A DNA stretch of 64,000 bases, taken from Escherichia coli (GTDB taxonomy: Bacteria; Pseudomonadota; Gammaproteobacteria; Enterobacterales; Enterobacteriaceae). The position numbers and the translations under genes are program-made. This document shows, in pieces, positions 28,060 to 28,431 of this stretch. Under the pieces are notes generated by a model, which worked only from the letters and a program-made list of their open reading frames with translations, searched no databases and was not told the DNA's origin. The stretch lies in assembly GCF_003334355.1 (NCBI RefSeq), contig NZ_QOWP01000002.1, one strand, 5' to 3'. Within the stretch, counting starts at the first letter, position 1. Each line of letters starts with the position of its first letter.

Positions 28060-28431
28060 AATTAATTAATGTCATCAGGTCCGAAAATAACGAGAATATT
28101 TCAGTCTCTCATCCTGTTGCGCTCCTGTCATGTGCATTGCTTCATATAATCACTGGCGCAAGGAGCGCGCAGGGGGCGGCCAATCGCCGCCGCCCCCTGC
28201 ACCCCCGGGCTCTGGCGAACAAAATCGCCGCTGCGCGGTGCCCTCGGCTTATCCCTTACGGCTACCGGGTCGGGCGCGAGGTAACATCCCTGTAAAACGC
28301 GCCCTCAGCCCACATCCATGTGGGCTGCCCCGGCCTTCAGGGAACGCCTCGGCAATTTTGACGCCACCAAACAACCGTGCGGCCTATTGATAAAGAGCTA
28401 ACACATTGTCAAAAAACATCACTATGGTTTT

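Follow-up and report, generated by a model that had tools for sequence, protein, structure and literature searches.

We analysed a 64,000-nucleotide stretch of an Escherichia coli genome (RefSeq assembly GCF_003334355.1, contig NZ_QOWP01000002.1), referred to below as the window, in which a GC-rich, hairpin-dense segment separates the genes yohP and dusC. This segment is the element TRIP1c, also called RRS-dusC (RRS, Replication Risk Sequence): a non-coding element that very probably acts as DNA, stalling synthesis of the lagging strand and leaving a gap. TRIP1c is already known, having been catalogued in 1999 and functionally characterised in 2023-2026. Its comparison across the enterobacteria suggests that a branched hairpin fold, rather than the runs of G to which its activity has been ascribed, may be what selection has kept.

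The identification is by sequence and by position. yohP lies at window position 27976 and at K-12 position 2228982, an offset of 2,201,006, such that window position x equals K-12 position x + 2,201,006; both the sequence of the element and its position between yohP/mdtQ and dusC are identical to those of K-12 2229122-2229394, and the window and MG1655 are 100% identical over 321 nt at this locus. These are the coordinates published for TRIP1c, 43 bp beyond the stop codon of dusC (yohI), by Li et al. (2024, PMC10888264), who treat the TRIP1 family named by Rudd (1999). Pham et al. (2023, PMC10287960; 2024, PMC11194060) placed the RRS elements beside dusC and lysO and equated them with TRIP1, and RRS are also the subject of a single-molecule preprint from 2026 (Kusi-Appauh et al., PMC13308219). 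The partner copy, TRIP1a or RRS-lysO, lies between aqpZ and lysO on the opposite strand and is 94.1% identical over 272 nt (locus L008, 4019-4289); across 28151-28373, pairwise alignment reveals only three differences, at 28247, at 28354 and, as a 1-nt indel, at 28369. TRIP1a and TRIP1c are a pair of GC-rich K-12 repeats, almost identical in sequence and opposite in orientation, situated about 650 kb either side of dif. A preliminary description, made from the letters of the window, had singled out 28130-28390 as GC-rich and rich in hairpins, and this is borne out: the GC fraction is 0.60-0.75 across 28100-28400, compared with 0.31-0.40 in the flanks, and both of the inverted repeats it reported are present, within 1-4 nt of the positions given. 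The extent was roughly right, although the alignments with other copies (A1 and A2) and the published TRIP1c coordinates make the element slightly larger, at 28116-28388.

What the element does is known from experiments by Pham et al. (PMC10287960, PMC11194060), who describe RRS-dusC and RRS-lysO as a pair of Replication Risk Sequences on either side of the Ter domain. DNA polymerases I, II and IV stop on the G-rich RRS strand in vitro; in vivo, RecA and SSB, the protein that binds single-stranded DNA, accumulate on the lagging-strand template over about 2 kb beyond each RRS, and these peaks are lost upon deletion of the RRS and gained wherever an RRS is inserted. Deletion of both elements is tolerated only if a 200-kb region is amplified in compensation, and when both are deleted or inverted supercoiling is altered genome-wide, as seen by Psora-seq. 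An inverted RRS produces no RecA/SSB peak in vivo, yet still complements. The same authors' proposal of a "topological relief valve" near the Ter border is their hypothesis and not a demonstrated function. Recombination between TRIP1a and TRIP1c gives rise to Ter-spanning inversions (Li et al. 2024, PMC10888264).

In the window the G-rich strand is the minus strand, and we infer that it is the lagging-strand template and that the fork runs here from high to low coordinates, because the K-12 map position lies in the left replichore and the plus-strand GC skew at the element is negative. The published 20-mer predicted to form a G-quadruplex (G4), GGGGGTGCAGGGGGCGGCGG, is present exactly on this presumed template, at 28187-28206. 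As single-stranded DNA, the minus strand has a folding energy of -79.9 kcal/mol (z -5.92), compared with -73.7 kcal/mol (z -5.44) for the plus strand, and for neither strand was any of 200 dinucleotide shuffles as stable. According to the published experiments, the G-rich strand serves as lagging-strand template when the fork unwinds the element, and it folds very stably, in the authors' proposal into a G-quadruplex at 28187-28206; the sequence also allows several hairpins arranged in branches. At the folded strand the lagging-strand polymerase halts, leaving up to about 2 kb of single-stranded gap for SSB and RecA to occupy. As a side effect, TRIP1a and TRIP1c offer substrates for homologous recombination, giving inversions across Ter.

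That the segment is non-coding was also the view of the preliminary description, which had noted an open reading frame at 28130-28390 with a Pro/Arg/Gly-rich, 86-residue translation. The frame exists and starts with ATG, yet it is an artefact of GC-rich non-coding DNA, and the chance that it encodes a small protein is practically nil: we rejected it because 1-nt indels shift the frame between near-identical copies (at 28369 relative to TRIP1a, and by loss of one nucleotide in the O157 copy) and because substitutions are paired across stems rather than patterned by codon. Long open frames persist in other copies, as they would in any GC-rich DNA; this one matches no NCBIfam family, is unannotated in all of the RefSeq records fetched, and belongs to an element found in both orientations with differing upstream sequences. 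Two other suggestions made for the segment fared no better. It is a copy of the TRIP1 family and probably not a repeat of the BoxC type, and descent from foreign DNA is unsupported because the element adjoins dusC in 5,412 of 5,426 complete E. coli genomes and has no match in the phage collection searched. The opinion that it is not a repetitive extragenic palindromic (REP) sequence stands, since the REP units that adjoin copies of the family (GCCTGATGCGACGC...) are, judged by eye, visibly different sequences.

A BLASTN count of copies, which the preliminary description had recommended, found the element in every one of the 5,426 complete E. coli genomes, with a median of 3 places per genome and a maximum of 10 (range 1-10); the E. 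coli places that we fetched are yohP-dusC, aqpZ-lysO and sstT-alx. There are 13 places in one Klebsiella pneumoniae chromosome and at least seven copies in Enterobacter sp. ENT03. Scanning one genome per species with a sequence pattern, we obtained at least 80 TRIP1-family loci, all of them true homologues, from Escherichia, Citrobacter, Klebsiella, Raoultella, Enterobacter, Kluyvera, Pseudescherichia, Pseudocitrobacter and Pluralibacter. Within the window, neither self-BLAST nor BLAST with 61 family members and the partner element revealed an additional copy. Copies 82-86% identical to that of E. coli also occur in a Desulfacinum metagenome-assembled genome (MAG), a Sporobacter termitidis MAG and a 583-bp Bacillus sp. 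contig (L035, L074 and L091), where they are most simply explained as enterobacterial contamination of the assemblies.

The element is thus multi-copy, and its fold is conserved across strains and genera, in agreement with the preliminary idea of a repeated, structured element. We aligned 61 family copies with mutual identity below 95% (alignment A5). Because the retrieval pattern fixed CATCCATG and CCCGGCC, the invariance of these two strings in A5 is partly by construction, and our conclusions therefore draw on loop 2, the stems and copies found only by BLAST. For the G-rich strand RNAalifold predicts 48 base pairs, 23 of which show compensatory double changes; 98.5% of the consensus cells are paired, compared with 85.7% in shuffled alignments, and the covariation score of 0.375 (0.144 in shuffles) was reached by none of 500 shuffles. 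When partners were slid by 1-3 columns, pairing fell to 34-47% of cells. The resulting family fold comprises a long closing stem (P1) around two adjacent hairpins, with the hexaloops AUGGAU and A-N-GGA-Y, and a third branch, followed by a stem of about 10-19 bp whose loop is mostly 7-9 nt and by a terminal hairpin with a variable loop. In the window the minus strand carries two GGA hexaloops 28 nt apart and a third GGA stretch, and an inverted-repeat scan pairs 28220-28235 with 28345-28360.

Compensation is seen throughout this fold. In helices 1-2 of P1 (columns 30-43 with 176-192), 13-23 of the 61 sequences are double-changed per pair, from CG to GC or UA; the stem of hairpin 1 (helix 7) has double compensatory changes in five of its eight pairs; and the terminal hairpin (helix 12) covaries across genera, for instance from GCGCTCC/GGAGCGC to CGTTCAC/GTGAACG, with both sides changed in 28 of 61 sequences. 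The loop of hairpin 1 is identical in BLAST-only copies from E. coli, Klebsiella and Citrobacter. In hairpin 2, whose loop lies outside the retrieval pattern, the GGA and the closing C-G pair are invariant (61/61), the loop reading A[G/A/U/C]GGA[U/C/A] across the family with its second position usually R. The hairpin at 28169-28200, which on the minus strand reads GCAGGGGGCGGC-GGCGAUUG-GCCGCCCCCUGC, is kept in position by all 61 representatives with many different stem sequences, for example GUAAAGGGCGU/ACGCCCUUUAC and CCAGGGUGGU/GCCACCCUGG; the Citrobacter-type stem, GTAAAGGGCGT/ACGCCCTTTAC, keeps the hairpin while losing the G-runs. The exact K-12 G4 20-mer occurs in only 15 of the 61 representatives, and the G4Hunter score, 1.84 in the window, is at least 1.5 in only 30. 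A subfamily of Citrobacter, Enterobacter, Pseudescherichia and Pluralibacter, present also in some Escherichia genomes, scores at most 1.2. Without invoking a G-quadruplex, the G-rich strand folds to a lower energy as RNA in 60 of 61 members, by a mean of 12.4 kcal/mol.

Several of these comparisons weigh against the reading of TRIP1c as a lagging-strand stall and gap element, at least in the form in which it has been proposed. Firstly, up to 10 copies in E. coli and 13 in K. pneumoniae, at varied loci, fit poorly with a role tied to two positions flanking Ter. Secondly, the orientation is not kept in nature. At the dusC locus, the 5,412 complete genomes that have the element there comprise 3,410 with the K-12 junction and 2,002 with the inverted one (63:37), so that 37% of E. 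coli genomes carry an inverted dusC copy, and the lysO copy is inverted in O157:H7 relative to K-12. In the inverted dusC allele that we fetched, from strain Dog168, yohP and dusC still flank the element; K-12 and Dog168 share only the element itself, and we rejected a simple flip between them, as the spacers on both sides are unrelated. This polymorphism fits an element that works in reverse, with limits, and is awkward for a lagging-strand rule applied strictly; the natural inverted alleles provide a ready-made test of the orientation requirement. Thirdly, the G-quadruplex may not be the essential feature, because G4 potential is found in only about half of the family and the hairpin, maintained by compensation, in every copy; alternatively, the subfamily without G-runs may work differently. 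That subfamily is likewise a ready-made test, here of whether the G-quadruplex matters. These data suggest that selection has kept the branched hairpin fold with its GGA hexaloops and not the G-runs. We stress that conservation of the hairpin over the G4 is not in conflict with the published polymerase-stop data.

The conserved fold bears equally on the suggestion, made in the preliminary description, that the segment might be a structured RNA. The G-rich strand does resemble the Rfam motif TwoAYGGAY (RF01731), although the activity demonstrated for TRIP1/RRS is on DNA. Under the alternative that this raises, the element or its 150-nt core would be a TwoAYGGAY-class RNA made from the minus strand, in K-12 as part of the dusC 3' untranslated region, whose GGA hexaloops would bind a CsrA-type protein and so sequester it or mark the transcript. 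We regard this as quite unlikely. The covariance-model search that had been recommended brought the K-12 copy to no Rfam gathering threshold: its best match is TwoAYGGAY (minus strand, 28223-28374), with 30.9 bits against a threshold of 43 (E 0.018 when 1.5 kb was searched), the scores of other E. coli copies are 29.9-30.6 bits, and an AgvB-like match at 28082-28142 on the plus strand (22.9 bits, cut-off 56) and matches to microRNAs are noise. Two full-length TRIP1 homologues from Pluralibacter gergoviae score 51.9 and 46.3 bits against the threshold of 43, over the same A5 columns. A closing P1 stem supported by covariation surrounds two hairpins, as in TwoAYGGAY, and a Psychromonas member of Weinberg's original alignment has the same layout of a closing stem, two adjacent hairpins with loops of the CAUGGAUG type and then a hairpin of 12-14 bp; in that member, which is multi-copy in its genome, the layout ends with a 14-bp AT-rich hairpin.

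As regards a CsrA-type partner, RF01731 belongs to Rfam clan CL00106 together with PrrB/RsmZ, and RMfam predicted CsrA binding for TwoAYGGAY. Loop 2, UACAGGGAUGU, matches 11 of the 12 positions of RUACARGGAUGU, the CsrA consensus from systematic evolution of ligands by exponential enrichment, and its GGA is invariant in 61 of 61 copies without having been selected for; loop 1, AUGGAU, fits AYGGAY, but loop 2 is ARGGAY (AGGGAU in K-12). Against an RNA role, neither promoter-like nor terminator-like sites turned up within the element in a simple scan, and the orientation relative to neighbouring genes, 63:37 at dusC and variable at lysO as well, leaves no fixed cis context. On helices predicted for both strands, G-U and A-C pairs number 11 and 7, no clear strand signal; where the two counts differ more, the difference depends on the strand used for the structure prediction. 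In the gene-level supplementary table of a CsrA study (Potts 2017), the scope of which does not extend to intergenic reads, dusC and ybjE are entered as "No" in four columns, presumably those for cross-linking and immunoprecipitation sequencing (CLIP-seq) and for binding.

From sequence and predicted structure, homology between TRIP1 and TwoAYGGAY is plausible, although we do not file TRIP1c as a member of that family. Tentatively, we raise the possibility, which we hold to be less than an even bet, that RRS/TRIP1 is a GC-rich enterobacterial branch of TwoAYGGAY, the selected feature being the branched GGA-hexaloop fold with its long 3' hairpin and not the G4. If that were true, the TwoAYGGAY "RNA" of Psychromonas, Clostridia and gut metagenomes would be a DNA replication-gap element, and programmed triggers of gaps would be widespread; alternatively, RRS elements would possess a CsrA-type side, RNA or protein-binding, that has gone unrecognised. 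The link to TwoAYGGAY suggests where to seek analogous elements outside the enterobacteria. A separate partial TwoAYGGAY match (37.2 bits) lies in flanking DNA beside the TRIP1 copy of locus L073.

Variation in copy number and place also raises the question of whether the element is primarily a selfish, non-autonomous dispersed repeat, resembling miniature inverted-repeat transposable elements or REPs, that spreads through intergenic "junkyard" spacers or is reshuffled between them; its fold would then be the recognition target of a mobilising enzyme and its effects on replication a by-product. We consider this rather unlikely as a primary role. The number of copies does vary (1-10 in E. coli, 13 in a K. 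pneumoniae chromosome, 7 or more in Enterobacter sp. ENT03), not every strain has a copy at alx-sstT, yegH-asmA or copA-ybaP, both orientations occur at the same locus in three cases, and REP elements surround copies in Klebsiella and at yegH-asmA; TRIP1b, the L007 copy and a 160-nt K-12 relic are internally deleted forms. However, neither terminal inverted repeats nor target-site duplications were detected in six Klebsiella and seven Enterobacter copies with their flanks or in the yegH-asmA alleles, a linked transposase was not found, and nearly all E. coli have a copy at each of the two main loci. Where alleles of a locus differ, they do so in the entire spacer and not by a clean insertion: at alx-sstT, yohP-dusC and copA-ybaP we found no clean empty site, the alternative alleles carrying different DNA. 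Phage origin was rejected, with no match among 50,697 phage records, and so was carriage on plasmids, as each of the 34 plasmid records with a match is typed non-mobilizable, and the two that we fetched and the megabase-sized ones are chromosomal DNA or chromosomes filed as plasmids.

The surroundings of individual copies are recorded here in their own right. Most of the six copies examined in K. pneumoniae ATCC 13883 (L085-L090) have REP units (GTAGGCCGGGTAAGGCGCAGCCGCCACCCGGC) to their left and right, in clusters resembling bacterial interspersed mosaic elements (BIMEs). At yegH-asmA (L099, 490-755, the K-12 spacer; also L098, 455-950, and L097, 455-560), K-12 has a 160-nt relic of the TRIP1 subfamily without G-runs, which matches the left part of the complete copy in L037 with 93.8% identity and is inverted with respect to the full copy of strain LR-31, where the element lies between two inverted REP units; a third allele has one REP only. 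A full copy is present at this locus in 40 of the 5,426 genomes, others there carrying a RelE/ParE module. The alx-sstT spacer hosts different repeat families according to strain, as GPEC1165 has TRIP1d (L006, 2232-2846) and K-12 a different GC-rich palindromic repeat (GGGGAGAGGGTTAGGGTGAGGGG ... CCCTCACCCCGACCCTCTCCC; L009, 4547-4944).

In several genera TRIP1 forms half of a composite repeat of about 650 bp (Enterobacter sp. ENT03, L050, 6896-7270; L025-L028, L030, L041, L069, L073, L078, L082 and L092), the other half of which is a related element in the opposite orientation, with an AGGGAU-loop hairpin (CUGGCCGCC-AGGGAU-GGCGGCCAG) and the terminal hairpin CACGTTCAC...GTGAACGGAAC that it shares with TRIP1. 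Some copies (L083, L026 and L041, from Escherichia whittamii, Pseudescherichia vulneris and Escherichia sp.) are split by a palindromic insertion of about 75 nt (GGCCCATCCCTGGGCC ... AAAATTGCTCCCGGCAATTTT), which lies after a CCGC-GCA-GCGG mini-hairpin. In an Enterobacter MAG a C4 antisense RNA (L021, 750-949; 55.3 bits, cut-off 45) is located about 200 nt from a TRIP1 copy, and the a1/b1 target of C4 and an isrK-like match are even nearer, an arrangement typical of immunity regions of P1/P7-type prophages.

The features of the window copy and its neighbours are collected in the table. Upstream of yohP, a long open reading frame at 26316-27842 on the minus strand is mdtQ (yohG), a frameshifted pseudogene in the K-12 records that is intact in Dog168. 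A sigma-70-like site at 28048-28075 on the minus strand (ATGACA, 16 nt, TATCAT; 10 of 12 matches), pointing leftward across the yohP stop codon, is at chance level.

Table. Coordinates, in the window, of TRIP1c / RRS-dusC, its structural parts and the adjoining genes
Feature	Position	Strand	Details
Complete TRIP1c repeat, 273 bp	28116..28388	minus = G-rich "sense / G4" strand	K-12 2229122-2229394; homology boundaries from alignments A1 and A2
RRS-dusC near-perfect 222-bp core common to TRIP1a / RRS-lysO	28151..28372	-	alignment with K-12 TRIP1a
Terminal hairpin, 8-bp stem, variable 34-nt loop	28119..28168	-	28119-28126 GCGCTCCT with 28161-28168 AGGAGCGC
12-bp GC-rich hairpin, 8-nt loop	arms 28169-28180 GCAGGGGGCGGC and 28189-28200 GCCGCCCCCTGC		100% complementary
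Predicted G-quadruplex-forming 20-mer GGGGGTGCAGGGGGCGGCGG (published)	28187..28206	-	overlaps 5' arm of the 28169-28200 hairpin
Closing stem P1, 3' arm (minus strand)	28214..28229	-	RNAalifold consensus helices 1-2
Third conserved GGA stretch GUAAGGGAUAA, third branch of core domain	28249..28259	-	near-invariant A5 columns G139, G140, A142-G146
Hairpin 2, hexaloop AGGGAU at 28286-28291 within UACAGGGAUGU	28272..28304	-	consensus helices 8-9
Hairpin 1, hexaloop AUGGAU at 28314-28319 within CAUGGAUG	28306..28327	-	inverted-repeat scan; helix 7
Second inverted repeat, 10 nt	arms 28306-28315 CAGCCCACAT and 28318-28327 ATGTGGGCTG		100% complementary
Closing stem P1, 5' arm (minus strand)	28351..28365	-	RNAalifold consensus helices 1-2; inverted-repeat scan
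yohP, small membrane protein gene, left neighbour	27976..28059	+	
dusC (yohI), right neighbour	28432..29379	-	stop codon 43 nt from element; transcription towards element

Among known repeats, REP/BIME and BoxC sequences are like TRIP1 in being GC-rich, extragenic, palindromic and multi-copy and in following gene ends, and TRIP1 copies are often found beside REPs. A REP, however, is a hairpin of about 35-40 bp with a consensus of its own and hundreds of copies, whereas TRIP1 is about 270 bp long, branched, present in 1-10 copies and unrelated in sequence; BoxC is 56 bp. TwoAYGGAY (Weinberg et al. 2010) shares with TRIP1 the long closing stem, the two adjacent hairpins with GGA hexaloops and, in Psychromonas, the occurrence in multiple copies per genome. 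TRIP1 differs from it in the third branch, in two further 3' hairpins and in the ARGGAY sequence of the second loop, and while TwoAYGGAY is catalogued as an RNA without known function, RRS activity has been shown on DNA. The pilE G4 of Neisseria gonorrhoeae is likewise G-quadruplex DNA reported to give a gap or nick during replication, and it is the sole bacterial precedent cited by the RRS authors (Pham et al., PMC10287960, PMC11194060); unlike TRIP1 it consists of one short G4 serving antigenic variation of pilin, has no branched hairpins and is not dispersed.

The TRIP1 repeats of the earlier literature (PMC10888264) are the same object as the window segment, which has no sequence difference from TRIP1c and is inverted relative to TRIP1a; Rudd (1999) and Li et al. 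(2024, PMC10888264) considered E. coli only and gave no function beyond the mediation of inversions. With the RRS-dusC of Pham et al. the window shares the 222-bp core, the G4 20-mer and the lagging-template strand. The spread of a multi-copy family over at least ten enterobacterial genera, its heavy covariation, the partial retention of the G4, the inverted dusC alleles and the Pluralibacter matches to TwoAYGGAY were not found in the cited TRIP1 and RRS papers, and although the element itself is no discovery, these comparative points are potentially useful to those who study RRS. Where the RRS papers call sequence and position highly conserved, our survey instead finds a 63:37 split of orientations at dusC and many extra copies in other genera, and where they stress the G4, it finds a subfamily that keeps the hairpins and not the G-runs.

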